Shown: piece by piece, positions 15,968 through 27,205 of the stretch | Layout of the letters: every line of letters begins with the position of its first letter | Position numbering within the stretch: position 1 is the stretch's first letter | Position numbers and translations under genes: made by a program | Assembly: GCF_000015025.1 (NCBI RefSeq) | Contig: NC_008578.1 | Span: 1,020,001-1,052,000 of the forward strand | DNA: 32,000 bases | Direction of reading: 5' to 3' | DNA from: Acidothermus cellulolyticus 11B | Lineage (GTDB): Bacteria > Actinomycetota > Actinomycetes > Acidothermales > Acidothermaceae | The notes under the pieces: model-generated | What the model was told of the DNA's origin: nothing | Seen by the model: only the letters and a program-made list of their open reading frames with translations | Databases searched by the model: none

Positions 15968-16804
15968 CTAGGGGTGGCGGACGTCCAGGATCAGCAGGGC
16001 GGCCACCGTGGCCACCTCGCTGATGGCGCCGAGAACGTCACCGGTCACCCCGCCAAGCCGCCGTACCGCCCAGCGGCGGATCACCCAGCCGGACGCGACA
16101 GCAGTCACCACCGCGCCGGCGGCGCGGACCGCCGCAAAGGACGAGCCGGCTTCCGGATCCCAGCGCCCGAAGGCCGCAGCAGCAACGACCAGAGCGGCCG
16201 TCCAGCCGACTGCCGTCCACTTCGGGACGCTGCCGGCCGCCATCGCGCCCAATCCGGTGGGACGGGCGGCCGGCGTGCGCGGCGTACACCCCCAGAGCAT
16301 CGCCACCCGGCCGCTGACCACGGAGATCACGAGCGATTGGGTGCCGTGGTGGGCCCGCACCCCCAGCGTGAGCGCGGCGATCTCGATCACGAGCACGAGG
16401 ATCAGCGCGGCAGCACCGAGTGACCCCAGGCGGGCATCGGCCATGATCTCCAGGGTCCGGTCGCGAGGGGCCCGGCTTGCCCAGCCGTCGACGGTGTCCG
16501 CGAAGCCGTCGAGGTGCAATCCTCCGCTGACCAGCGCAGTCGCGGCTATGGCGAGAGCGGACGCCAAGGTGGCCGTCTCGACCGACGTTCCCGCCCCGGG
16601 CAGGTCGTGGATCGGGCTTGTGAACGCGACCCGGGCTGCCAGCAGGACCATCGCGCCGACTGCGGCGACCATCAGTCCGACCACAGGGGCCCAGGCCATG
16701 GCGGCGCGGACCTGCCGCCGGTCGGGTGGCGGAACCCGGCCGGCCGGGATGGCGGTGAGCAGGCTGACGGCGAGCCGCAATCCGCCGGGTGATCGGGCGG
16801 TCAC
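15968..16804 (-). CDS. cobS: Adenosylcobinamide-GDP ribazoletransferase (cobalamin synthase)
   Basis: Family motifs LRLAVSLLTAIP, GGLHLDGFADTVDG and GGVTGDVLGA are present in a polytopic membrane protein. The GTG start at 16804 overlaps the cobT stop as GTGA (16801-16804). Confidence 0.9.
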   Translation of the reverse strand: MTARSPGGLRLAVSLLTAIPAGRVPPPDRRQVRAAMAWAPVVGLMVAAVGAMVLLAARVAFTSPIHDLPGAGTSVETATLASALAIAATALVSGGLHLDGFADTVDGWASRAPRDRTLEIMADARLGSLGAAALILVLVIEIAALTLGVRAHHGTQSLVISVVSGRVAMLWGCTPRTPAARPTGLGAMAAGSVPKWTAVGWTAALVVAAAAFGRWDPEAGSSFAAVRAAGAVVTAVASGWVIRRWAVRRLGGVTGDVLGAISEVATVAALLILDVRHP

Positions 16805-17937
16805 GGTTCCGCGACCGCATTGGAACGGGTCGCACTGGCCCCCGGTGGGTGGTCGGCGCCGGTCGCCGGAGCCGAATCGTCCCGGCTTGCCCCCGGCGGC
16901 GGATACCGGCCGCTTACTCCAGCCGAAGCGAAGGTCGCCATGTGGGTGAGCGTAGCCGCCGCGGCCCGCAGTATCGGGACAGCGAGGAGCGCGCCGGTGC
17001 CTTCGCCCAGCCGGAGGCCGACGTCCAGGATCGGCGGAAGTCCGAGCTCGGCAAGCGCGATGGCATGCCCGGGCTCGGTCGACCGGTGACCGGCGACCCA
17101 CCACCGGCGTGCCCCCGGGGTGAGCCGTTCGGCCAGCAGCGCCGCCGCTCCGGTCACCACGCCGTCGAGCACCACCGGCGTACGACGATCAGCGGCCTCG
17201 GCAAGAAAACCAGCCATCGCCGCCAGATCTGCCCCGCCGATCGCCGCGACCAGGCGTACCGGGTCGTCCCGCCATGGCGTGCCCCGGCGAATCGCCGCCG
17301 TAACCATTGCGCGCTTGCGGGCGAATGCCTGGTCGTCGACGCCGGTGCCGCGGCCGGTAACCTCGCCGGCGGTCCGCCCGGTGAGGACGCCGATGAGCGC
17401 TGCCGCCGGAGTGGTGTTGCCGATCCCCATGTCCCCGGCGATCAGCAGGTCCGTACCCGCGTCGATCTCCTCGTCGGCGATGGCCCGGCCGGCCGCCATC
17501 GCCGTCACCGCCGTCTCAACGGGAATCGCGTCGGTGACGTCGATCCGTCCGGAGCCGTTCGCGACGTGCCATCGGCGGACGGCGTCCGGCCAGGGGTGAT
17601 CCCCGGCGACGGACACGTCGGCAACCCGCAGCCGCACCCCGGCCTGGCTCGCGAGGACGTTGGCCGCCGCACCCCCGGCGAGAAAGTTCGCCACCATCTG
17701 CGCGGTGACCGCGGGTGGGTACGCCGAGGCGCCGACCTCAGCAACCCCGTGATCACCAGCGAAGATGACCAGCGTGATCCGGTCGAGCGGGTCCGGCGGG
17801 CAGCGGCCTTGGACGCCGCAGAGCCAGATCGCCAGCTCTTCGAGGCGGCCGAGGGATCCTGCCGGCTTGGTCAGCTCCGCTTCCCGGCGGCGGGCCGCTT
17901 CGATGGCCGTTACATCAAGGTCAGGCGCCGTCCTCAC
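16801..17937 (-). CDS. cobT: Nicotinate-nucleotide--dimethylbenzimidazole phosphoribosyltransferase
   Basis: LTKPAGSLGRLEELA, VIFAGDHGV, GDMGIGNTT and LRLGEGTGA are present. The GTG start lies 4 nt after the cobU stop. There is a short Pro-rich C-terminal tail. Confidence 0.93.
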   Translation of the reverse strand: MRTAPDLDVTAIEAARRREAELTKPAGSLGRLEELAIWLCGVQGRCPPDPLDRITLVIFAGDHGVAEVGASAYPPAVTAQMVANFLAGGAAANVLASQAGVRLRVADVSVAGDHPWPDAVRRWHVANGSGRIDVTDAIPVETAVTAMAAGRAIADEEIDAGTDLLIAGDMGIGNTTPAAALIGVLTGRTAGEVTGRGTGVDDQAFARKRAMVTAAIRRGTPWRDDPVRLVAAIGGADLAAMAGFLAEAADRRTPVVLDGVVTGAAALLAERLTPGARRWWVAGHRSTEPGHAIALAELGLPPILDVGLRLGEGTGALLAVPILRAAAATLTHMATFASAGVSGRYPPPGASRDDSAPATGADHPPGASATRSNAVAEP

Positions 17938-17941
17938 GGGG

Positions 17942-18469
17942 TCACGTCACCCTTCTGCCGGTGAGTAAGCTCCGCCCGATGCCGGCAACCATGAAGATCA
18001 CGTCGTCGCTGTCAGCGGCCAACCGGGCATTCAGCTCGCCGAGCAGGTCGCGGAAGATCCGACCCGACGGGTACGGCGGCACGACACCACAGCCGACCTC
18101 ATTGCTCACCGCGACGACAACGCCGCGGCACGCTCCCCACGCGGCGGCCAGTTCGTCCATCCGCTCGGCGGCCCTCGACGGCGTCTCGTCCAGGACCCGG
18201 GCGAGCCAGACCGTCAGGCAGTCCACCAGAGCAGCCTGGTCAGGCTGCAGGTCCGCCAAGATGTCAGCCACCGCCGTCGTCTCGATGGTCGTCCAGGACG
18301 CCGGCCGGCGTCGGCGGTGGTCTGCGATCCGAGCCGACCACTCCGGGTCGGTGCCGTCGTCCGCCGCGGTCGCGACGTACTGGACGTGGCTCCGGTCGGC
18401 GAGCAACCGCTCGGCGTACCGGGACTTGCCGGACCGCACCCCGCCGAGAACGAGGACCCGTCGGCTCAT
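17942..18469 (-). CDS. cobU: Bifunctional adenosylcobinamide kinase / adenosylcobinamide-phosphate guanylyltransferase
   Basis: P-loop VLVLGGVRSGKSRYAE, YVATA and VVAVSNEVGCGVVP are present. I trimmed the 350-aa ORF to the ATG at 18469, which overlaps the upstream stop as ATGA. An alternative ATG is at 18478. Confidence 0.9.
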   Translation of the reverse strand: MSRRVLVLGGVRSGKSRYAERLLADRSHVQYVATAADDGTDPEWSARIADHRRRRPASWTTIETTAVADILADLQPDQAALVDCLTVWLARVLDETPSRAAERMDELAAAWGACRGVVVAVSNEVGCGVVPPYPSGRIFRDLLGELNARLAADSDDVIFMVAGIGRSLLTGRRVT

Positions 18470-19467
18470 GGTCCGCATTCTCGGCCTGCCTCCGGCGCCG
18501 ACCCTGCCGGCCGGCGCGCGTCGGGAGGGAACGGCGTGCCGGGCTCCGGTCCGTTGCCGGGGAACGAGGTGACGGGCTCCGGCCGGTCGGCGGGGAGCGG
18601 GGTGACGCTGACCGTCGCGTCGAACGCCGCCCGCCGAGCTGCTCGTCGCAGCGCTGCGAGCACCGGGCGGCCGGCGACCGCGACCAGCAGGGCGTTGGCC
18701 GCGGCCCGTGGGATGTCGAAGCCGAGCGACGTGGCGACGTAGAACGCCATGAAGTGGCGCAGCTCGGTCAGCGGATCCGCGCCCGGAACATAGCTGATCC
18801 CTGCAGCAAGTCCGGTGGTCTGCAGCGGCCAGAACCACAGGTCCATGACCGCGCCGTACGCCAGACCGGCGCATGCGCCGTATCCGGCGAGCATGGCGAT
18901 CTCCGGCCATCTCCCGTGCCACCGCCGCGGCACCGGCAGGCATCCCGCTCCGAGCCCCACCCAGCCGGCAGCGATCATCTGGAAGGGCAGCCACGGCCCG
19001 ACCCCGCCGGTGAGCAGTGCGCTTGCGAACAACGTCAGGACGCCGAGGCAGAATCCGAATCCGGCGCCGAGCGCCCGGCCCGCCGGCATCAGGAGGAAGA
19101 ACACCGGCGACGCACCGGTGATCTCACCGCCGAACGGCCGCAACGCCGCACCGCACCCGGCGAGCACCCCGAGGATGGCGATTGCCTTGGCATCCAGCCG
19201 CCCGTCGGCGAACTCGGCTAGCACGACCGCCAGCACGGCGGGCAGTACGGTCAGGAAGATCCACGGCGCGTCACCGGCATGCGCGGCATTGGGGGAGGCG
19301 TGCGGCGGGGTCGCCGCGAGGAACGGCCAGCCGAACGCCAGGACACCGACTGCGCTCGCCAGCAGGAGGGCGACGGCTGACCGGGGGCGCAACGCCAGGG
19401 GCCGCCGCGCTCGGCGCCGCAGCGGCACGCGCCGTGCTCGGTTCCGCAGCAGGACGGTCTGGATCAT
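18466..19467 (-). CDS. ECF transporter substrate-specific (S) component, candidate corrinoid-specific, with Pro-rich cytoplasmic tail
   Basis: There are about 6-7 hydrophobic helices after a basic N-terminus. The gene sits directly after EcfT and EcfA. The ATG at 19467 overlaps the ATPase stop as ATGA (19464-19467). Specificity is inferred from the riboswitch and cobUTS context only. Confidence 0.72.
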   Translation of the reverse strand: MIQTVLLRNRARRVPLRRRARRPLALRPRSAVALLLASAVGVLAFGWPFLAATPPHASPNAAHAGDAPWIFLTVLPAVLAVVLAEFADGRLDAKAIAILGVLAGCGAALRPFGGEITGASPVFFLLMPAGRALGAGFGFCLGVLTLFASALLTGGVGPWLPFQMIAAGWVGLGAGCLPVPRRWHGRWPEIAMLAGYGACAGLAYGAVMDLWFWPLQTTGLAAGISYVPGADPLTELRHFMAFYVATSLGFDIPRAAANALLVAVAGRPVLAALRRAARRAAFDATVSVTPLPADRPEPVTSFPGNGPEPGTPFPPDARRPAGSAPEAGRECGP

Positions 19468-21107
19468 CGGCTGCCTGCCAACGCTGCGGCGACGTCCGCC
19501 ACCGTTAGCCACGGCAGCGGGTGGAGAATGCGGGCCACCTGCGGAGCGAACGCTGGTGTCGCGGTGACCACGCTCGCGGTCGGGCCGTCCGCCACGACCT
19601 CACCCTCCGCGAGGACGACCGTGCGGGTCGCCACCTCCGCGGCGAGTTCGACGTCGTGGGTCGCCAGCAGGATCGCCGTCCCGGAGCGGGCGAGGGTTCG
19701 GAGGAGGGCGGCGAGCCGTGCCTTCGCGGTGTAGTCAAGACCCCGGGTCGGCTCGTCGAGGGCGAGGACCCGCGGCCGCCGGGACAGGACCACCGCCAAG
19801 GCGACGGCGAGTTGTTCACCCTCGGACAGGTCGCGCGGATGGCGGTGTGGCTCGATGTCAGGGGCGATGGTCTGGAGGGTGGACAGGCCGTCGGGGAGGT
19901 CGGCCAGCTCCCCGGCGACGGTGTCGGCATAGAACAGATCGCTCGGTTCATGCGGGACGAAGCCCACGCACCGCACGAGCCCGCCCGCCGACAGTCGGTG
20001 TGGTGCTGCGCCGCAGACTCGGACGTCCCCGCGCCACGGCACCGCAAGCCCGGCGATGTGCGCGAGGAGCGTGGTTTTCCCGGCGCCGTTCCGGCCCATC
20101 ACCGCGACAATCTCACCGGCGTCCACCTGAATCGTGACGTCACGGAGCGCCGGTCTCCCGTCATATCCGGCGGTCAGTCTCCGGACGTCGACCACCGGAT
20201 CAGGGGTGGGTCGTCCCAACCCGTCGTGATGAGCGGTCGGTTCGGAGCGTGCGGCCGGCGACCGGTGGGTGCCGTTCGCCGCAGCCGCGGTCAGGGTGGC
20301 GAGGCGATCGCGAAGCTGTTCGGCGTGTCGTCGGGCGTCCCGGATCGAGAGGGGCACCGGATGCCATCCGGCGAGCCGGGCCAGGTGGACGACCGGCGGG
20401 GCCAGCGGGGAGACGGCCATCGCCGCGGCCGGCGATTCGGCGACGACGCGGCCGTCACCGGGCAGGAGCAGGATGCGGTCGGCGTACTGAACGATCCGTT
20501 CCAACCGGTGCTCGGCCACCAGCACGGTCATCCCGAGGTCGTGCACCAGCCGGGTGAGGACGGCCAGCACCTCTTCGGCTGCCGGCGGGTCCAGCGCCGA
20601 CGTCGGCTCGTCGAGGACGAGAATCCGCGGCCCCGCCGTGAGCACGGCGCCGATGGCGACGCGTTGCTGCTCGCCGCCGGAAAGGTCGCCGAGCCGGCGG
20701 GACCGCAGCGCGGAGAGGTCCAGGAGATCGAGGATGTCTTCCACCCGACGGCGCATCGTGGCCGGCGGCACACCTAGCCACTCCATGGCGTAGGCGAGCT
20801 CGTCCTCGACCGTGTCGGTGACGAAACCGGCCGCCGGGTCCTGGCCGACGTAACCGACGATGTCGGCGAGCTCGCGGGGCGGGTGATCCCTGGTGTCCCG
20901 CCCTGCGACGATCACTCGGCCGGCGAGGTGCCCACCGGTGAAGTGCGGGACGAGACCGTTGACCGCACGCAGCAGCGTCGACTTGCCCGACCCCGTGCCG
21001 CCGACCACCAGGGTGAGCTCTCCCTCGGGGATCGCGAGAGTGACGCCGTCGAGGACCGGCCGGTCGGTCTCCGGGTACCGGAACGTCACTCGATCGAAGG
21101 TGATCAC
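19464..21107 (-). CDS. Fused ECF-type ABC ATPase (EcfA1-EcfA2, two nucleotide-binding domains)
   Basis: NBD1 has GGTGSGKST, LSGGEQQRVAIG and ILVLDEPT. NBD2 has GRNGAGKTT, LSEGEQLAVALA and VLALDEPT. The GTG at 21107 overlaps the EcfT stop as GTGA. The 693-aa ORF in the track is a 5' over-extension. Confidence 0.93.
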   Translation of the reverse strand: MITFDRVTFRYPETDRPVLDGVTLAIPEGELTLVVGGTGSGKSTLLRAVNGLVPHFTGGHLAGRVIVAGRDTRDHPPRELADIVGYVGQDPAAGFVTDTVEDELAYAMEWLGVPPATMRRRVEDILDLLDLSALRSRRLGDLSGGEQQRVAIGAVLTAGPRILVLDEPTSALDPPAAEEVLAVLTRLVHDLGMTVLVAEHRLERIVQYADRILLLPGDGRVVAESPAAAMAVSPLAPPVVHLARLAGWHPVPLSIRDARRHAEQLRDRLATLTAAAANGTHRSPAARSEPTAHHDGLGRPTPDPVVDVRRLTAGYDGRPALRDVTIQVDAGEIVAVMGRNGAGKTTLLAHIAGLAVPWRGDVRVCGAAPHRLSAGGLVRCVGFVPHEPSDLFYADTVAGELADLPDGLSTLQTIAPDIEPHRHPRDLSEGEQLAVALAVVLSRRPRVLALDEPTRGLDYTAKARLAALLRTLARSGTAILLATHDVELAAEVATRTVVLAEGEVVADGPTASVVTATPAFAPQVARILHPLPWLTVADVAAALAGSR

Positions 21108-22282
21108 TTGCCCTCCCGGCTGGGCCGGCCGGTCCGTGCACGAGTGCGGCGCATGTCCGGCGTCGTATGCGCGATTACGACGGGGATCGCCGCGGCCAGA
21201 ATGCCGGCCACGGCGATCCCTGGCGTCGCCGGCAGCACCGGCGGATATCCCGTCGGGTTGAGCGCGGCTGCGTCGATGTGACCGGCGCTGATCACACCAG
21301 CGGCGGCTGCGGAGCCGGCCGCCGCCACGATCCAGGAGGCTGGGGTCCACTGGGGCGGCCGGTAGCGGGTGCGGACGGCGTCGGCCCGTCCGGCGAGCAC
21401 GGCGAGGGCGGCGAGGAGCGCACCGCCGGCGGCCAGCGGAAGTCCGACGCCGCCCGGGGTGCCTGGCGTGAGGAGGGCGTACGACGCGGCGGCCGTAGCG
21501 AGCAGGCCCACGACAAGGCCGGCGGTGACAAGCCGCCGCCGCCACCGCGGCGCGGATCCCCGCCGGCCAAAGCCGCGGGCGTCCATCGCTGCGGCCAAGT
21601 TGATCGATCGCTCGAGTGCACCATGCAGGACAGGCAGCGCCGAACGGACCCAGCTGACCAACCCGCGGTCCGGTTCGCCGCGCAAGCGTCGGGCCCGCCG
21701 GACTCGGCGGGCGGCCGTCGCAAGTTCCGGGGCCACTGACAGGGCGACGGCGACGGCTACGCCCATCTCATAGAGCGCGGCCGGCAGCAGCCGCAGCAGC
21801 GACCGCGGATCGGCGATCGCCACAGCGGCACCGATCGCGAGGATCAGCGCGGCGAACTGGAGTGCGCCGTACAACGCGTTGAGCAGCGCCTCGACGGTGA
21901 CCGGCCCGCCGATGTGCAGGCCGACGAGGAAATCGGGCACGGGCACCTGCGGGAGCGCCACGACGACATGCCCGGGGAGGCCTGACGTGAAGATCACGGC
22001 TAGCGCCATGCGGAGTGCGACGACAACCGTCGCCAGGCGGAGGAAGAACCCGAAGAGCCGGGTGTGGGCCCGTACGGCGGCGACATATCCGGTGACCGCG
22101 AGGATGAGGCTGAGCAGGATCGGATTGGTGGTGCGGCTGGCCGCTACCGCGAGCCCGGTTGCCCAGATCCACCACGCCCCGGGGTGGAGCCCGTCACGCG
22201 GTTGGGTGACCGGCCCGGTTCGTTCGGCACGTTTGCGGTTGGCGGCGGTGACGCCGGCTCGGCCCGGTGCGACCGTGCTCAT
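21104..22282 (-). CDS. ecfT: Energy-coupling factor transporter transmembrane protein EcfT
   Basis: This is a polytopic membrane protein with the EcfT coupling-helix motif AAAMDARGFG and an Arg-rich loop RRVRRARRLRGEP. The ATG at 22282 overlaps the upstream stop as ATGA (22279-22282). Confidence 0.85.
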   Translation of the reverse strand: MSTVAPGRAGVTAANRKRAERTGPVTQPRDGLHPGAWWIWATGLAVAASRTTNPILLSLILAVTGYVAAVRAHTRLFGFFLRLATVVVALRMALAVIFTSGLPGHVVVALPQVPVPDFLVGLHIGGPVTVEALLNALYGALQFAALILAIGAAVAIADPRSLLRLLPAALYEMGVAVAVALSVAPELATAARRVRRARRLRGEPDRGLVSWVRSALPVLHGALERSINLAAAMDARGFGRRGSAPRWRRRLVTAGLVVGLLATAAASYALLTPGTPGGVGLPLAAGGALLAALAVLAGRADAVRTRYRPPQWTPASWIVAAAGSAAAAGVISAGHIDAAALNPTGYPPVLPATPGIAVAGILAAAIPVVIAHTTPDMRRTRARTGRPSREGK

Positions 22283-23223
22283 CGGTTGCCTCGCCGACGA
22301 TTGATCGCCGTCCATGCCCCAGCCGAGCCGAGGAGGACGGCGGCTGCTCCCGCGATCACGGTTGCCGGGTCCACGCCGCCGGTATGCGCTGTCGCTGGAT
22401 GTGCCGCCGTGGTCGGGACCGACGGTGTGGTACTCGGGTCGCTGGTTGCCGACGGCTGCGCGCCGCCGGAGGCTCCTGTCGCCGGCAGGGCCTCGCTCGG
22501 GGTGCTCTGCTGCGGCCGGCTGCCCTCGGTCGGCGGCGCGGTTGCCGCCGGCACGGTCGATGCAGCCGTCCCAGTGCTCGGCGTCCGACTTGGTGGGGCG
22601 GCGGACGCCGACGCCGACGCCGATGTCGTACCGGCCGCGACTGGCGACCGGCTGACCGAGACCGCGGGTGCGCATTCGCTGCGAGGGTATCCGTCGATGC
22701 CGCAGATGAGCCCGGAGGAACCGATCCGTACGTTGTCCTGGCCCACGGCGGCGACGAGGACGTCGGCGCCGGTCTGCCCCTGCCGTACCGTGACGCATTT
22801 CGTGATCACACGTGCCGGAGGGGTCTCCCCGGGCGGGGCATCCGACGGCGTCCCGAAGTCGATGACGATGCCGACGGAGATGAGGTCCGGCGCGGTCGGC
22901 GATGGGCAGATCAGCTGACTCGGGGGGACGCGGGGCGTCAGCGGGGTGTCGACCGCGCCTTGGACGCCGAAGCGCCAGCCCTGCACCTCGCCGTTGACGG
23001 GATGCTCGGCGGCCGGCCCGCGCTGGGCGTACACCCACCTGCCGTTCTCGGCGAGGTAGTACGCCCAGTACCGGTAGGCGGTGTCCGCCCGGACCGGACC
23101 GGCGGTGCCGACGACGGCCGCTGCCGCGGCCCCGCCGAGGCTTGCCAGTGTCCAGAGCGCGAGGGCCACCGCCGCCCTGGCGGAGCGGCGGCGGCCGGCT
23201 TCGCGTCCTGGACCCGTCATCAC
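22279..23223 (-). CDS. Secreted, C-terminally membrane-anchored protein (SCO2322-family-like, function unknown)
   Basis: The signal-like N-terminus is RRRSARAAVALALWTLASLGGAAAA. A small globular N-domain follows (YRYWAYYLAENGRWVYAQRGPAAEHPVNGEVQGWRF), then a Cys-containing middle domain, a long Ser/Thr/Pro/Ala linker, and a C-terminal TM helix with RRRGNR. The start overlaps the upstream stop (GTGATG at 23218-23223). The family name is from memory of PGAP annotations. Confidence 0.7.
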   Translation of the reverse strand: MMTGPGREAGRRRSARAAVALALWTLASLGGAAAAAVVGTAGPVRADTAYRYWAYYLAENGRWVYAQRGPAAEHPVNGEVQGWRFGVQGAVDTPLTPRVPPSQLICPSPTAPDLISVGIVIDFGTPSDAPPGETPPARVITKCVTVRQGQTGADVLVAAVGQDNVRIGSSGLICGIDGYPRSECAPAVSVSRSPVAAGTTSASASASAAPPSRTPSTGTAASTVPAATAPPTEGSRPQQSTPSEALPATGASGGAQPSATSDPSTTPSVPTTAAHPATAHTGGVDPATVIAGAAAVLLGSAGAWTAINRRRGNR

Positions 23224-24467
23224 GAGCGGCTGCGGCGTGGGCGACGAGCGCTGAGGACGAGCGCGGTTCCCAATGCGAGCAGCACCACCCCGGCTGCGGC
23301 GACCGGCAGGTCGACGCGCGAACCGGTCATCGGCAGGGTCGCCGGGGTTGCGGTCGGCCGCGGGGTCGCCGAGGCACTGGCGCTCGGGGTTGGGGTCGCT
23401 GTCGCTGGGGCTGATCGTTCGGTGGCGAGCAGGGCAGCGACGAGGTCAACGCCGCCGAAGTTCCGCGGGTTGGTACCCGTTGCGGCGGCGACGAGGAGCA
23501 GGGTGCCGACCGCTCCGGGCGACGTCGTGCCGTTGCTGGTGATGTAGCTCCGCGCGTTCGTCTGCAGGGCGGCAAGCCCCTCCTGGACTGCGGCTGCCCC
23601 CTGCCCGGCGGCGATCAAGTCCAGGAGGGCGTTCGCGGTGGTCGTCCAGTCGGTGCCGCTGCCGAACGCGGACGGGATCGCGCCGTGCGTGGCCGTGAGC
23701 CGGTTCGCGAGATAGCCGATGGCGTCGGCTGCCGCGGTCGCGGCGTCGGTGCTCGGGACACACGCCGGTACGGCGGCGGCCGGGGTAGCGGCCGGGACCG
23801 GAAGCGCCTTGCCGAGGAGGCCCAAGACGGCCTGGACCGTCGCGTAGTCATTGGCCGCCAGCGGGGTCTCCGGCTGGTAGTCGAAGGCACCAGCGCCGCT
23901 CCCCGCCGTACAAGGAACCTGTATCGAGCGGAGGAAGTCGATGCCGTTCTTGCCGTTCTTCGTGATTGACGTGGGGTCGATGCCGGCCGCAGCGAAGGTA
24001 CTGAGGGCGAGTCCCGTCGAGTTGGCGTCTGAAGCCGGCGTGCCGAAGGCGGCGCTCGCATAGAACCCACCGTCGGCGAGCTGGAAGTTGGCGAGCGCAT
24101 GGGCGGCCGCTGTTCCGGCAGCGGTCTTGCCGGCTGCGATGAGGGCCATTGCGGCGAGCGCGGTTGCGTTGGAGTCTTCCTTGCTCGTCTGGCACGGCAC
24201 GGTCGGGTCGGGTCGGTACGCGGTGAAGGCGCCGTCCGCGCACTGCTGGCCGAGCAGCCAGTCGATGGCGGCCGCATCCGGGTGTTGGCCGGCGGCGATG
24301 AGTCCGAGGACGGCGAGACCCTGCCGGTAGACGCCGTCGTACGTCGGGTCCGCCGAGCCGAAGAGGCCCGTGTCGGACGATGCGGCGGTGGCAGGGGCGG
24401 TGACAGCAAGCGGGGCGATCGCGGCCAGGACAGCTGCGACGCCGGCACGGCGAAGCGTACGGATCAT
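23220..24467 (-). CDS. Cell-wall-anchored (LPXTG) prenyltransferase/squalene-oxidase-repeat (alpha/alpha toroid) protein
   Basis: The signal peptide is MIRTLRRAGVAAVLAAIAPLAVTAPATAAS. Repeated toroid-type repeats are present (QQCADGAFTAY, FQLADGGFYAS, GAGAFDYQ). The C-terminal sorting signal is LPMTG plus a hydrophobic helix plus RRPRRSRS. The ATG at 24467 is preceded by GGAGAGGA. Confidence 0.8.
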   Translation of the reverse strand: MIRTLRRAGVAAVLAAIAPLAVTAPATAASSDTGLFGSADPTYDGVYRQGLAVLGLIAAGQHPDAAAIDWLLGQQCADGAFTAYRPDPTVPCQTSKEDSNATALAAMALIAAGKTAAGTAAAHALANFQLADGGFYASAAFGTPASDANSTGLALSTFAAAGIDPTSITKNGKNGIDFLRSIQVPCTAGSGAGAFDYQPETPLAANDYATVQAVLGLLGKALPVPAATPAAAVPACVPSTDAATAAADAIGYLANRLTATHGAIPSAFGSGTDWTTTANALLDLIAAGQGAAAVQEGLAALQTNARSYITSNGTTSPGAVGTLLLVAAATGTNPRNFGGVDLVAALLATERSAPATATPTPSASASATPRPTATPATLPMTGSRVDLPVAAAGVVLLALGTALVLSARRPRRSRS

Positions 24468-24518
24468 GTAATCCTCTCCGGTTCTGGCTGCGAGGCCGGT
24501 CCCGGAGATGAGACCCGG

Positions 24519-24548
24519 AGATAACGAACCCCACGCGTTCGCGTGGGG
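24519..24548 (-). terminator. Riboswitch expression-platform hairpin (candidate intrinsic terminator)
   Basis: The minus strand reads CCCCACGC-GAAC-GCGTGGGG, an 8-bp perfect stem, followed by TTCGTTATCT. It lies between the aptamer and the SD of the first gene. Confidence 0.5.
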
Positions 24549-24606
24549 CTGCTCCGGGTGTTCCCGGCTCCGCCCCGCAGACCACGACGGTTGTCAGGAG
24601 CCTCTC

Positions 24607-24707
24607 CGCGCCCGGCAGGTACTCCGGCTCGCCGCGGACAGCGCCGCGGCCTACGGTTGCGGGTCAGCGCCGGACTTTGACCGGCTTCCCCTGCACGTTC
24701 GGGCGCG
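24607..24707 (-). promoter_or_regulatory. Cobalamin (AdoCbl) riboswitch aptamer, compact form
   Basis: The minus strand reads CGCGCCCG-AAC-GTGCAGGGGAAGCCGGTCAAAGTCCGGCGCTGACCCGCAACCGTAGGCCGCGGCGCTGTCCGCGGCGAGCCGGAGTACCTGC-CGGGCGCG. P1 is 8 bp (24707-24700 with 24614-24607). The conserved GGGAAGCCGGT.AAA.TCCGGCGC.GACCCGCAACCGTA core is present. A B12-box-like GAGCCGGAGTACCTGCC lies at 24630-24614. Confidence 0.85.
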
Positions 24708-24931
24708 TATGAAGGTGTTGCCGCGTTGAGCAAATCACGCCGACCCTCGGCGGGTCAACGCGGGGTCGGCAGGTTGCGCCGGGTGCGACATCGGCCGGCG
24801 GTTCCAGGCAGCCCGACAGGAGCCTGAGGTGCACAGGTACGCCGCAGCGCGAGCCCCACGGTGGGGGCCGGCCGGTGCGCTGCAGCCTCGGGTCGCACGT
24901 AACCGACGCCCTGCCAGTAAGGTGATCGTCC

Positions 24932-26261: not shown

Positions 26262-26372
26262 GGCCTCGCGGTGACCTCGGCGGGCTTCCGGGCCTCGCGG
26301 TGACCTCGGCGGGCTTCCGGGCCTCGCGGTGACCTCGGCGGGTCGCGGGGACTGGCGGTGACCTCGGCTGGT
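26262..26372. repeat. 29-bp tandem repeat, about 3.8 copies (GGCCTCGCGGTGACCTCGGCGGGCTTCCG)
   Basis: There are two identical copies at 26262-26290 and 26291-26319. A third copy from 26320 matches for 23 nt. The core GCGGTGACCTCGGC recurs at 26268, 26297, 26326 and 26355, an exact 29-nt phase. It lies in the spacer between the DUF3043 stop and the AKR start. A 29-nt period cannot be coding. Confidence 0.9.
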
Positions 26373-26973: not shown

Positions 26974-27042
26974 GCGCCTCAGCGTAGCGGGACAGCGGCT
27001 GCGGCTGCGCAGCCACCGCGCCCTGGACAGGCAGGAGGGCCC

Positions 27043-27205
27043 ATTGGGCCGGGCGGGGGCGGGCGCAATGGGCCAGGCAGGGGGCCGCGATGGGCCGGGC
27101 AGGGGCGGGCGAAGCCGACGACCGGCGGCCGATACCGACCACGCAGCGGCGGGCGAAGCCGACGACCGGCGGCCGAAACCGACCACGCAGCGGCGGGCGA
27201 ACGCG
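27043..27205. repeat. Composite G-rich repeat block: three ~22-24-bp units (TGGGCCGGGCAGGGG-like), then a 44-bp tandem repeat x2.2
   Basis: TGGGCC[G/A]GGC[G/A]GGGG units start at 27045, 27069 and 27091. The 44-mer GCGGGCGAAGCCGACGACCGGCGGCCGA[T/A]ACCGACCACGCAGCG lies at 27105-27148 and 27149-27192 with one mismatch. A third copy starts at 27193. The block lies in the 388-nt divergent spacer between DUF3043 and pspA. Confidence 0.85.

Follow-up and report, generated by a model that had tools for sequence, protein, structure and literature searches.

A riboswitch-controlled squalene-cyclase-like surface protein of Acidothermus cellulolyticus as candidate capture subunit of a predicted actinobacterial corrinoid importer

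The window, a stretch of 32,000 nucleotides from Acidothermus cellulolyticus 11B, carries on its reverse strand a cobalamin riboswitch followed by an operon of eight genes (Table 1). The first two genes encode secreted proteins, a toroid (gene 1) and an SCO2322-family protein (gene 2). They are followed by the T component, the fused ATPase, and the S component of an ECF transporter (genes 3 to 5) and by cobU, cobT, and cobS. Stop and start codons overlap or nearly abut throughout, and the toroid, partner, and ECF genes are translationally coupled to cobU-cobT-cobS. The three cob genes make up the cobinamide-to-cobalamin salvage branch and directly follow the ECF genes.

Table 1. Features of the operon and its leader; positions are those of the window.
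Feature	Position	Strand	Evidence
Cobalamin (B12) riboswitch aptamer	24597..24738	-	Rfam RF00174, 33.4 bits vs gathering score 31.5, E 4.7e-5
Expression platform/leader	24468..24596	-	GC hairpin 24529-24548, U-rich tract 24521-24528, RBS GGAGAGGA 24472-24479
Gene 1, open reading frame	23220..24467	-	ATG start, 415 aa
Gene 1, predicted signal peptide, ~residues 1-29	24381..24467	-	Sec-type, MIRTLRRAGVAAVLAAIAPLAVTAPATA / ASS; pLDDT <50
Gene 1, alpha/alpha toroid ectodomain, ~residues 30-349	23421..24380	-	AF2 pLDDT >90, Foldseek, SHC profile
Gene 1, Pro/Thr/Ala/Ser stalk ERSAPATATPTPSASASATPRPTATPAT, residues 350-377	23337..23420	-	Sequence, low pLDDT
Gene 1, LPMTG, hydrophobic helix, RRPRRSRS tail, and stop codon	23220..23336	-	Regex, sequence
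Gene 2, SCO2322-family secreted protein	22279..23223	-	NCBIfam NF040672, 126.7 bits vs cut-off 85
Gene 3, ECF T component (CbiQ-like)	21104..22282	-	PF02361 E 3.5e-4, under cut-off; ATGA overlap with gene 2
Gene 4, fused double ECF ATPase (A-A')	19464..21107	-	Two ABC_tran domains, E 5e-49; GTGA overlap with gene 3
Gene 5, divergent ECF S component	18466..19467	-	PF12822 E 1.3e-5; ATGA overlap with gene 4
cobU (adenosylcobinamide kinase / guanylyltransferase)	17942..18478	-	PF02283 E 1.4e-53; NF004469 above cut-off; ATG overlaps gene 5 stop
cobT (NaMN:DMB phosphoribosyltransferase)	16801..17937	-	TIGR03160 403 bits vs cut-off 319
cobS (cobalamin 5'-phosphate synthase)	15968..16804	-	PF02654 E 3.3e-45; GTGA overlap with cobT

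The product of gene 1 is 100% identical to a protein recorded as 'LPXTG-motif cell wall anchor domain protein [Acidothermus cellulolyticus 11B]'. An earlier note on this DNA had described a signal peptide, a toroid, a stalk, and an LPMTG/TM/RRPRRSRS terminus, and this layout is confirmed by the sequence, by AlphaFold2, and by Pfam, profile, and Foldseek comparisons. QW-type repeats can be read in the toroid (for example, WLLGQQCADGAF and FQLADGGFY), and four of its Cys (76, 92, 186, and 236) are conserved in an alignment of 47 family sequences. The sorting signal starts at residue 378 and reads LPMTG-SRVDLPVAAAGVVLLALGTALVLSA-RRPRRSRS, that is, an LPXTG motif, a hydrophobic segment, and a basic tail. 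It scores 14.6 bits with the LPXTG model TIGR01167, just under the cut-off of 15.9, and Pfam Gram_pos_anchor is matched by 18 of the 47 family members. LPxTG is kept in Acidothermaceae relatives; the anchor is lineage-specific and occurs in about 13 of 80 genome loci. No TLxTC sortase signature is found within the 32-kb window. The best explanation of these features is that in the Acidothermus lineage the protein is tethered to the cell wall by the predicted sortase signal on a flexible stalk. By family, gene 1 matches NCBIfam NF053823 ('SCO2321 family membrane protein') over residues 11-363 with 249.4 bits (E 5.7e-74), which is under the curated equivalog cut-off of 300 bits; it is clearly homologous nonetheless.

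The AlphaFold2 model of gene 1, built from the 47-sequence alignment, has a pLDDT of 89 and a pTM of 0.81 and contains 12 helices between residues 45 and 347. The toroid is assigned to its family on three grounds: SQHop_cyclase_C is matched by 38 and Prenyltrans by 35 of the 47 family members, the family profile matches squalene-hopene cyclase (SHC) with an E of 4e-19, and the top Foldseek matches of the model are class II terpene cyclases (E 7e-7, TMq 0.45-0.49). Taken alone, gene 1 reaches 16.3 and 14 bits, which is under the Pfam cut-offs. Class II terpene cyclases, such as SHC and drimenyl diphosphate synthase, are its best relatives in both structure and sequence, and they have in common with it the QW repeats and inner-helix D-x-x-x-T motifs. 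What is lost is the catalytic acid. In the profile alignment, D374-V-D376-D377-T-A of SHC aligns with D98-S-N100-A-T102-A of the family, so that the general acid D376 is replaced by a nearly invariant Asn (N100, at least 90% conserved) and the next Asp by Ala. The statement in the earlier note that catalytic Asp-rich motifs are not evident is thus borne out, the DxDD of SHC being D-S-N-A in gene 1.

The kinship with active cyclases raises the question whether the toroid could still be an extracytoplasmic enzyme. Its substrates might be envelope lipids, if it is a terpenoid cyclase or prenyltransferase, or corrinoids, which it would process or remodel as a hydrolase ahead of uptake. Hydrolases are frequent among (alpha/alpha)6 toroids, and some are in the Foldseek list (cellobiose 2-epimerase, MmpH, and dextran dextrinase); polar residues at the inner-helix N-termini of the toroid (D44, D98/N100, D147/N149, N206, and D273) are nearly invariant. 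The substitution of the DxDD acid, however, argues against cyclase chemistry, as do the single toroid of about 320 aa in place of a beta-gamma two-domain cyclase and the signal peptide and sorting signal in place of a position on the cytoplasmic face, where the prenyl diphosphate substrates are found. A protein prenyltransferase beta subunit would call for Zn2+ ligands (Asp/Cys/His) and an alpha-subunit partner, but none of the His is invariant or near-invariant among the 47 family sequences, and the operon contains neither an alpha-subunit-like gene nor other lipid or terpenoid genes. An enzymatic role is therefore considered decidedly improbable. To judge from its sequence, gene 1 is a squalene-cyclase-like ring protein that is catalytically dead, and it further differs from the class II cyclases in being secreted and anchored and in its context of B12 transport and salvage.

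The toroid was earlier proposed to be transcobalamin-like, and of this proposal only the fold-level part stands. Like transcobalamin, intrinsic factor, and haptocorrin, which are non-enzymatic extracellular binders, gene 1 has an alpha6/alpha6 toroid. In contrast to them, it has no significant sequence or profile similarity to that family and no fused beta domain; a beta-grasp (SLBB/DUF4430) domain, the lid over the ligand, was not detected. In Foldseek, transcobalamin (2bb5_A) ranks 39th (E 3.2e-3, TMq 0.40, rmsd 9.6), behind terpene cyclases; the structural comparison proposed in the earlier note thus comes out on the side of the cyclases, whose catalytic motif is degenerate in gene 1. The family profile retrieves no transcobalamin, intrinsic factor, or haptocorrin chain from the PDB sequences at E <= 10. 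Pfam PF01122 Cobalamin_bind, the other comparison proposed there, speaks against the resemblance, since it is matched by only 2 of the 47 members (best E 0.025) and does not match gene 1 itself. Finally, hhalign gives the family a probability of 1.5% against human TCN2; the TCN2 probe itself scores 933 bits against PDB transcobalamin chains. Sequence-level kinship with transcobalamin is rejected on the profile, Pfam, and hhalign comparisons, and the likeness is that of any alpha/alpha toroid.

Gene 1 has an obligate partner in gene 2, which is missing from the earlier note. The start of gene 2 overlaps the stop of gene 1, and the gene 2 homologue lies directly downstream of the toroid gene in 80/80 loci. 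After a signal peptide, the protein has a beta-rich domain of about 145 aa (22648-23094), which contains 4 conserved Cys, and then a stalk; a C-terminal TM segment serves as its anchor. Both secreted proteins are thus built with signal peptides, conserved Cys quartets, and stalks, which supports an extracytoplasmic location for each. The four invariant or near-invariant Cys of each protein look like disulfide pairs, and neither family has an invariant His or Met. The AlphaFold2 model of gene 2 has a pLDDT of 84.5 (core >95), and it finds no fold in the PDB (best Foldseek E 1.7), as its profile finds no PDB sequence. All of the best 150 matches listed for a profile search with the gene 2 domain are close family members; the protein family numbers 1,712 clusters at 50% identity. 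A motif of the domain, YWAYY..NG..W.Y...G...P.nGEVQGWRF, suggested a divergent DUF4430/SLBB domain, the transcobalamin beta domain. This assignment was rejected on the evidence of Foldseek, the profile search, Pfam (no DUF4430 in any family member), and hhalign, which places the motif on the C-terminal strand of TC with a probability of 0.2%. A transcobalamin-style sandwich of the two proteins is therefore an analogy only. Three toroid-SCO2322 fusions (P0086, P0101, and P0259) were considered as Rosetta-stone evidence and were judged to be gene-call read-throughs, given an internal second signal peptide or a frameshifted stalk.

The riboswitch lies 130 nt upstream of gene 1 on the same strand, with a structured leader and no ORF in between, in agreement with the earlier description of gene 1 as the first riboswitch-controlled gene. 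The leader RNA folds with -76.8 kcal/mol (z -5.2 vs shuffles), and in its MFE fold CUCC at the aptamer's 3' end is base-paired to GGAG within the RBS; the leader hairpin is not called by a simple terminator scan. When adenosylcobalamin is plentiful, it would bind the riboswitch and turn the eight-gene operon off. In 76 of the 80 genome loci, a custom model (R1) detects the equivalent element immediately before the homologue; it gives no hit elsewhere in 978 kb. The earlier note had reasoned that its proposal would fall if homologues were generally found without B12 riboswitches, and the reverse is seen.

The ECF genes are recognizable at different strengths. Gene 4 matches TIGR04520 and TIGR04521 with E of about 1e-81 to 1e-83. 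Gene 5 is divergent, with PF12822 found in 16 of 22 orthologues (best E 2.5e-10). In sequence it matches none of the solved S components, and its identification with CbrT or another of these was accordingly dropped.

At least 588 species-representative genomes carry the cassette. Among the 80 loci, the toroid and SCO2322-like genes are present in all, EcfT in 74, EcfAA' in 72, and EcfS in 66; most of the gaps are contig ends, and in two loci, L010 and L040, the toroid/partner pair has no adjoining ECF module. The order of toroid, SCO2322-like protein, EcfT, EcfAA', and EcfS is identical in Streptomyces and Acidothermaceae loci, and cobU/cobT/cobS also directly follow the cassette in 11-13 other loci.

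Cobalt is another conceivable substrate of such an operon. The cassette would then be a Co2+ ECF importer feeding B12 synthesis, and the toroid and its partner would be metal-handling accessories in a CbiN-like role. The T and A components do match CbiQ and CbiO-type models, and it is established that B12 riboswitches repress cobalt transporters too (Rodionov et al. 2003). The cassette is also common in Streptomyces, a genus known to make B12 de novo. Against cobalt, however, CbiM and CbiN are absent from the cassette, and the model matched by the S component, PF12822, is a general vitamin-type one. The secreted proteins offer no invariant His or Met, their Cys having the appearance of disulfide pairs, and the operon is joined to the corrinoid-acting cobU/T/S, not to a chelatase. 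Moreover, the cassette occurs in Nanopelagicales MAGs (loci L010, L019, L024, L037, and L051), and this order is reported to lack corrin ring synthesis and de novo B12 synthesis, with a few strains salvaging cobinamide (PMC12817590). Cobalt import is thus considered unlikely.

Burroughs, Balaji, Iyer, and Aravind (2007) predicted that surface proteins with a toroid and an SLBB domain, encoded beside CbiO/CbiQ, scavenge B12 or its precursors (PMC1796856). These proteins resemble the Acidothermus cassette in being secreted or Gram-positive-anchored, in combining a toroid with a small domain, and in their association with a CbiO-like ATPase and a CbiQ-like membrane protein. That clade, however, was described from low-GC Gram-positives, planctomycetes, and euryarchaea, and its defining feature is the SLBB beta-grasp domain (PMC1796856). 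In Acidothermus, toroid and partner are encoded as two proteins, and the partner shows neither a detectable SLBB/DUF4430 signature nor a PDB fold match.

In Lactobacillus sakei, a unit comprises a secreted toroid (lsa1840), a small secreted protein (lsa1839), EcfT (lsa1838), EcfAA' (lsa1837), and EcfS (lsa1836), and its authors propose the two exported proteins as the scavenging front end of the ECF transporter (10.1101/864751). The Acidothermus operon has the same five roles, S, T, fused AA', and two secreted proteins, and the same order if locus-tag numbers reflect position. By the authors' HHpred, Lsa1840 and Lsa1839 are clearly similar to transcobalamin alpha and beta, and the Acidothermus pair is not detectably so; LPXTG or TM anchors are an addition of the actinobacterial version, as are cobU/T/S in some lineages. 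The word 'riboswitch' occurs 0 times in the L. sakei paper. The reported substrate in L. sakei is heme, 57Fe-heme uptake being 5- to 8-fold lower in the deletion mutant and restored by complementation (10.1101/864751), and the actinobacterial system might likewise import heme or another such tetrapyrrole. We find this very improbable indeed: the B12 riboswitch is conserved across the loci, the operon is translationally coupled to cobU/T/S and contains no heme-related genes, and B12 was not among the substrates tried there (10.1101/864751).

Two further systems are comparable in role. Reviews give cbrUVT as a corrinoid uptake signature. Like the Acidothermus module, ECF-CbrT (CbrTUV) is a dedicated ECF transporter whose ATPase is a fused double protein and whose role relates to B12. 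They differ in that the Acidothermus S component has no detectable similarity to solved S components. We know of no description of CbrT systems as needing extracytoplasmic partners. In Bacteroides, BtuG and BtuH capture B12 at the surface with high affinity and feed it to a transporter. The role proposed for the Acidothermus pair is the same, but BtuG is a beta-propeller, an unrelated fold, and the Bacteroides proteins serve a TonB-dependent transporter in the outer membrane of a Gram-negative cell. Literature searches on SCO2321-2325, on toroids with a cobalamin riboswitch and ECF genes, and on Acidothermus and cobalamin found no account of the actinobacterial system. The toroid scavenger concept is already known, and the SCO2321/SCO2322 version is an uncharacterised actinobacterial variant of it.

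Taken together, gene 1 is most likely the outer capture subunit of a widespread actinobacterial importer of vitamin B12 and cobinamide, and the context gives good support to its reading as a non-enzymatic surface binder related to corrinoids. The lost DxDD acid and the missing invariant His of a Zn site argue for a non-catalytic binder. A corrinoid as the substrate is argued by the B12 riboswitch, confined to these loci in the sequence searched, by the conserved five-part cassette, by the overlapping or nearly abutting eight genes of the operon with the cobU/T/S salvage branch, by the occurrence in Nanopelagicales, and by the precedents of Burroughs 2007 (PMC1796856) and L. sakei lsa1836-1840 (10.1101/864751).

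We consider it rather probable that the operon works as follows. Outside the cell, the toroid and the SCO2322-family protein, the latter tethered to the membrane through a stalk and TM helix of its own, would capture cobamides or incomplete corrinoids such as cobinamide, possibly as a 1:1 complex. The captured corrinoid would be handed to the S component of the dedicated ECF importer, consisting of the divergent S, the T, and the fused A-A' ATPase, and imported cobinamide would be completed by the co-transcribed CobU, CobT, and CobS, all under repression by the riboswitch. Several points count against this scheme: transcobalamin kinship is not detectable beyond the fold, gene 2 shows no similarity to SLBB/DUF4430, the L. 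sakei relative is reported to import heme and not B12, B12 riboswitches also control cobalt transporters, B12-making Streptomyces have the cassette, and in L010 and L040 the pair has no ECF module beside it. As far as is known, ECF transporters normally work without an extracytoplasmic binding protein, and the two surface proteins could thus serve something other than ligand delivery.

A bolder form of the corrinoid importer is put forward tentatively and by analogy. The SCO2321-type toroid and the SCO2322-type domain may form a two-protein corrinoid clamp in which a new fold replaces the beta-grasp domain, an independent reinvention of the transcobalamin principle derived from terpene cyclases. 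In that case, Actinobacteria ranging from Streptomyces to the Nanopelagicales that dominate fresh water may obtain B12/cobinamide mainly through this cassette.

Among Actinobacteria, Mycobacterium tuberculosis takes up B12 by the unrelated BacA/Rv1819c. If both surface proteins bind corrinoids, they would constitute a new class of bacterial B12-capture proteins, and the use of extracytoplasmic capture subunits by ECF transporters could be demonstrated. The cassette would also provide a genomic marker of corrinoid scavenging in soil and freshwater communities, and a stable, thermophile-derived B12 binder would become available.

The toroid gene (gene 1) heads a run of co-directional genes on the minus strand. 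Stop/start overlaps (ATGA, GTGA or TGATG) join all eight genes between 15968 and 24467, the one exception being cobU and cobT, which are separated by 4 nt; this implies that translation is coupled all the way from the surface proteins to cobS. As these overlapping or nearly abutting genes follow a riboswitch, they thus form an eight-gene unit headed by it. The unit encodes a pair of surface proteins and a full ECF importer, together with CobU, CobT and CobS, the enzymes that convert cobinamide to cobalamin. The S component is very divergent: in A. cellulolyticus it falls under the Pfam cut-off, it has no NCBIfam match, and no solved S component is matched by its sequence or by a profile of 22 members.

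Features of the riboswitch-headed unit and its surroundings (window positions)
Feature	Position	Strand	Evidence
Cobalamin riboswitch	24738-24597	-	RF00174, 33.4 bits (gathering score 31.5)
Leader hairpin with U-rich tract	24521-24548	-	
Gene 1, toroid protein	23220-24467	-	ATG start, ORF of 415 aa
Gene 2, SCO2322-family secreted protein	22279-23223	-	NF040672, above cut-off
Gene 2 globular domain	22648-23094	-	AlphaFold2 core pLDDT above 95
ECF T component	21104-22282	-	CbiQ, E 3.5e-4
Fused double ECF ATPase	19464-21107	-	Domain and family models
ECF S component, divergent	18466-19467	-	PF12822 in 16 of 22 orthologues
cobU, cobT, cobS	Downstream of S component	-	Family models
Tandem repeats upstream of PspA-like gene	27028-27202; 26300-26368		

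The riboswitch lies 130 nt upstream of gene 1 on the same strand, and no ORF intervenes. Gene 1 is thus the first riboswitch-controlled gene, as the earlier note had proposed. Its leader is strongly structured (z -5.2), and the 3' end of the aptamer may pair with the ribosome-binding site. A GC-rich leader hairpin, CCCCACGC-GAAC-GCGUGGGG, followed by the U-rich tract UUCGUUAU, looks like an intrinsic terminator; a consensus terminator scan does not report it. Among 11 loci searched with Rfam models, 7 have a B12-class riboswitch upstream of the toroid gene. These riboswitches were made into a covariance model, which, applied to the 80 best toroid loci, places one 100-500 nt upstream, on the coding strand, in 76 of them, and nowhere else in 978 kb. 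Therefore, the B12 link is a property of the family and not a peculiarity of the A. cellulolyticus genome; homologues generally lacking such a riboswitch, which the earlier note held would speak against its reading, are not what is seen. Different Rfam models match at this upstream position from locus to locus, namely AdoCbl-II (RF01689), AdoCbl (RF01482) and Cobalamin (RF00174) (L010, 5806-5897; L026, 5636-5782), and the aptamer subtype may vary by lineage.

Elsewhere in the window, GC-rich tandem repeats lie upstream of a PspA-like gene. In one set the periods are 20-44 nt, and a 44-nt unit is present there in 2.3 copies (96% match); another repeat consists of 2.4 copies of 29 nt, and the ORFs overlapping them contain repeated peptide segments.

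The identical A. cellulolyticus 11B protein is annotated in the database as "LPXTG-motif cell wall anchor domain protein" and no more. Read directly, the sequence begins with a Sec-type signal peptide, carries QW-type repeats (WLLGQQCADGAF, FQLADGGFY) in its globular region and a Pro/Thr/Ala/Ser stalk (residues 350-377), and ends in LPMTG (residue 378), a hydrophobic helix and RRPRRSRS. The AlphaFold2 model, based on 47 aligned homologues, is confident (pLDDT 89, pTM 0.81) and folds residues 45-347 into 12 helices forming an (alpha/alpha)6 toroid, with the signal peptide and stalk disordered. Both the sequence features and the toroid described in the earlier note are therefore present. The four cysteines (76, 92, 186 and 236) are conserved and would suit a pair of disulfide bonds in a protein outside the cytoplasm.

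The toroid is of the terpene-cyclase type, because several comparisons favour cyclases over transcobalamin. A profile of the 47-member family matches squalene-hopene cyclase (SHC) at E 4e-19, with other class II terpene cyclases next; chains of transcobalamin, intrinsic factor and haptocorrin are all absent from its matches, even with the limit at E <= 10. In a Foldseek search of the PDB, class II cyclases rank first (drimenyl diphosphate synthase, E 7e-7; SHC, TMq 0.49, rmsd ~5 A), followed by prenyltransferase beta subunits, complement TED domains and some glycosidases, whereas human transcobalamin ranks 39th (E 3e-3, TMq 0.40, rmsd 9.6 A). Pfam assigns SQHop_cyclase_C to 38, Prenyltrans to 35 and TED to 19 of the 47 members, and Cobalamin_bind to 2, at E >= 0.025. 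Human TCN2, whose probe sequence scores 933 bits against PDB transcobalamin, aligns with the family by hhalign at a probability of 1.5%. The likeness to transcobalamin is only a shared fold class, and the label "transcobalamin-like" survives as an analogy.

A cyclase-type toroid could be read as an enzyme, and several observations argue against this. The SHC motif D374-V-D376-D377-T-A aligns by HMM with D98-S-N100-A101-T102-A of the family, in which N100 is at least 90% conserved and T102 invariant; therefore the general acid is gone, in agreement with the missing catalytic Asp motif described earlier. The protein is exported, it has a single toroid as opposed to a beta-gamma pair, and the family has no conserved His fit for a prenyltransferase Zn site. 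A non-enzymatic binder is the simplest reading of the predicted function. This part of the earlier interpretation, a B12-linked surface binder, fits well; it left out the partner protein.

That partner, gene 2, carries a signal peptide and, at its C-terminus, a TM anchor; between them lie a domain of ~145 aa, in which four Cys are conserved, and a long stalk of low complexity. Its AlphaFold2 model is confident, and the domain has no structural match in the PDB by Foldseek (best E 1.7), no match of its profile to PDB sequences, and none in the Pfam copy searched, from which PF28005, its precomputed annotation, is absent. At 50% identity the family falls into 1,712 clusters.

When each species is represented by one genome, a scan yields at least 588 loci with a toroid relative. 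The best 80 are all from Actinomycetota (Acidothermaceae, Streptomyces, Kitasatospora, Micrococcales, Nanopelagicales and others), and in all 80 an SCO2322-like gene lies directly 3' of the toroid gene, making this protein an obligate partner. EcfT is present in 74, EcfAA' in 72 and EcfS in 66, with absences mostly at contig ends; cobU (13/80) and cobT (11/80) follow the cassette. Anchoring varies: ~13 of the 80 (Acidothermaceae, some MAGs) have LPXTG, the Streptomyces proteins end in a plain TM helix preceded by an acidic or Lys-rich linker, and those of Nanopelagicales and Micrococcales MAGs lack an anchor. In L010 (7883-8746), a Nanopelagicales MAG, the pair adjoins no ECF module, and the genes after it are a serine-hydrolase/beta-lactamase-like ORF, asd and cobU/T/S; in protein P0275, a similar hydrolase-like N-terminal domain is apparently fused to an SCO2322 domain. 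Three apparent metagenomic toroid-SCO2322 fusions (P0086, P0101, P0259) are most likely gene-calling read-throughs, because a second signal peptide lies inside them or their stalk sequence is frameshifted.

It is proposed that the toroid and its partner, held on stalks away from the membrane, would capture cobamides or incomplete corrinoids and hand them to the S component; imported cobinamide would be completed by CobU, CobT and CobS, and AdoCbl would turn the operon off via the riboswitch. Taken as a whole, with binding and transport predicted, this explanation is somewhat favoured by the evidence. Cobalt as the substrate is less favoured than a corrinoid, because the operon is coupled to cobU/T/S salvage genes, the S component is vitamin-type, CbiM/CbiN are absent, His and Met are conserved in neither of the surface proteins, and the cassette occurs in Nanopelagicales, which reportedly lack de novo synthesis and of which some strains salvage cobinamide (PMC12817590).

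The idea of B12 scavenging by toroid proteins has precedents. From low-GC Gram-positives, planctomycetes and euryarchaea, Burroughs, Balaji, Iyer and Aravind (2007; PMC1796856) reported a clade of SLBB proteins resembling transcobalamin. These are secreted or carry a Gram-positive anchor, many have an alpha/alpha toroid fused to them, and their genes occur with CbiO/CbiQ-like ones; scavenging of B12 or B12 precursors was the role that the authors predicted. In L. sakei, lsa1836-1840 encode EcfS, EcfAA', EcfT, a secreted TC-beta-like protein and a secreted toroid, and promote uptake of heme, the substrate examined (10.1101/864751). The five roles are identical in A. cellulolyticus, as is gene order if locus-tag numbers follow position. 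In contrast to these systems, the actinobacterial toroid is cyclase-like and not transcobalamin-like, the partner has another fold or has diverged past recognition, the S component shares no sequence relationship with those solved so far, and a B12 riboswitch is hardly ever missing. The SCO2321 and SCO2322 families bear names given by NCBI curators, without a function, and a literature search found no paper on them. Given these precedents and differences, the actinobacterial cassette is a variant of a known, itself barely characterised, kind of system; it is very widespread and uncharacterised, and includes a domain without known structural relative.
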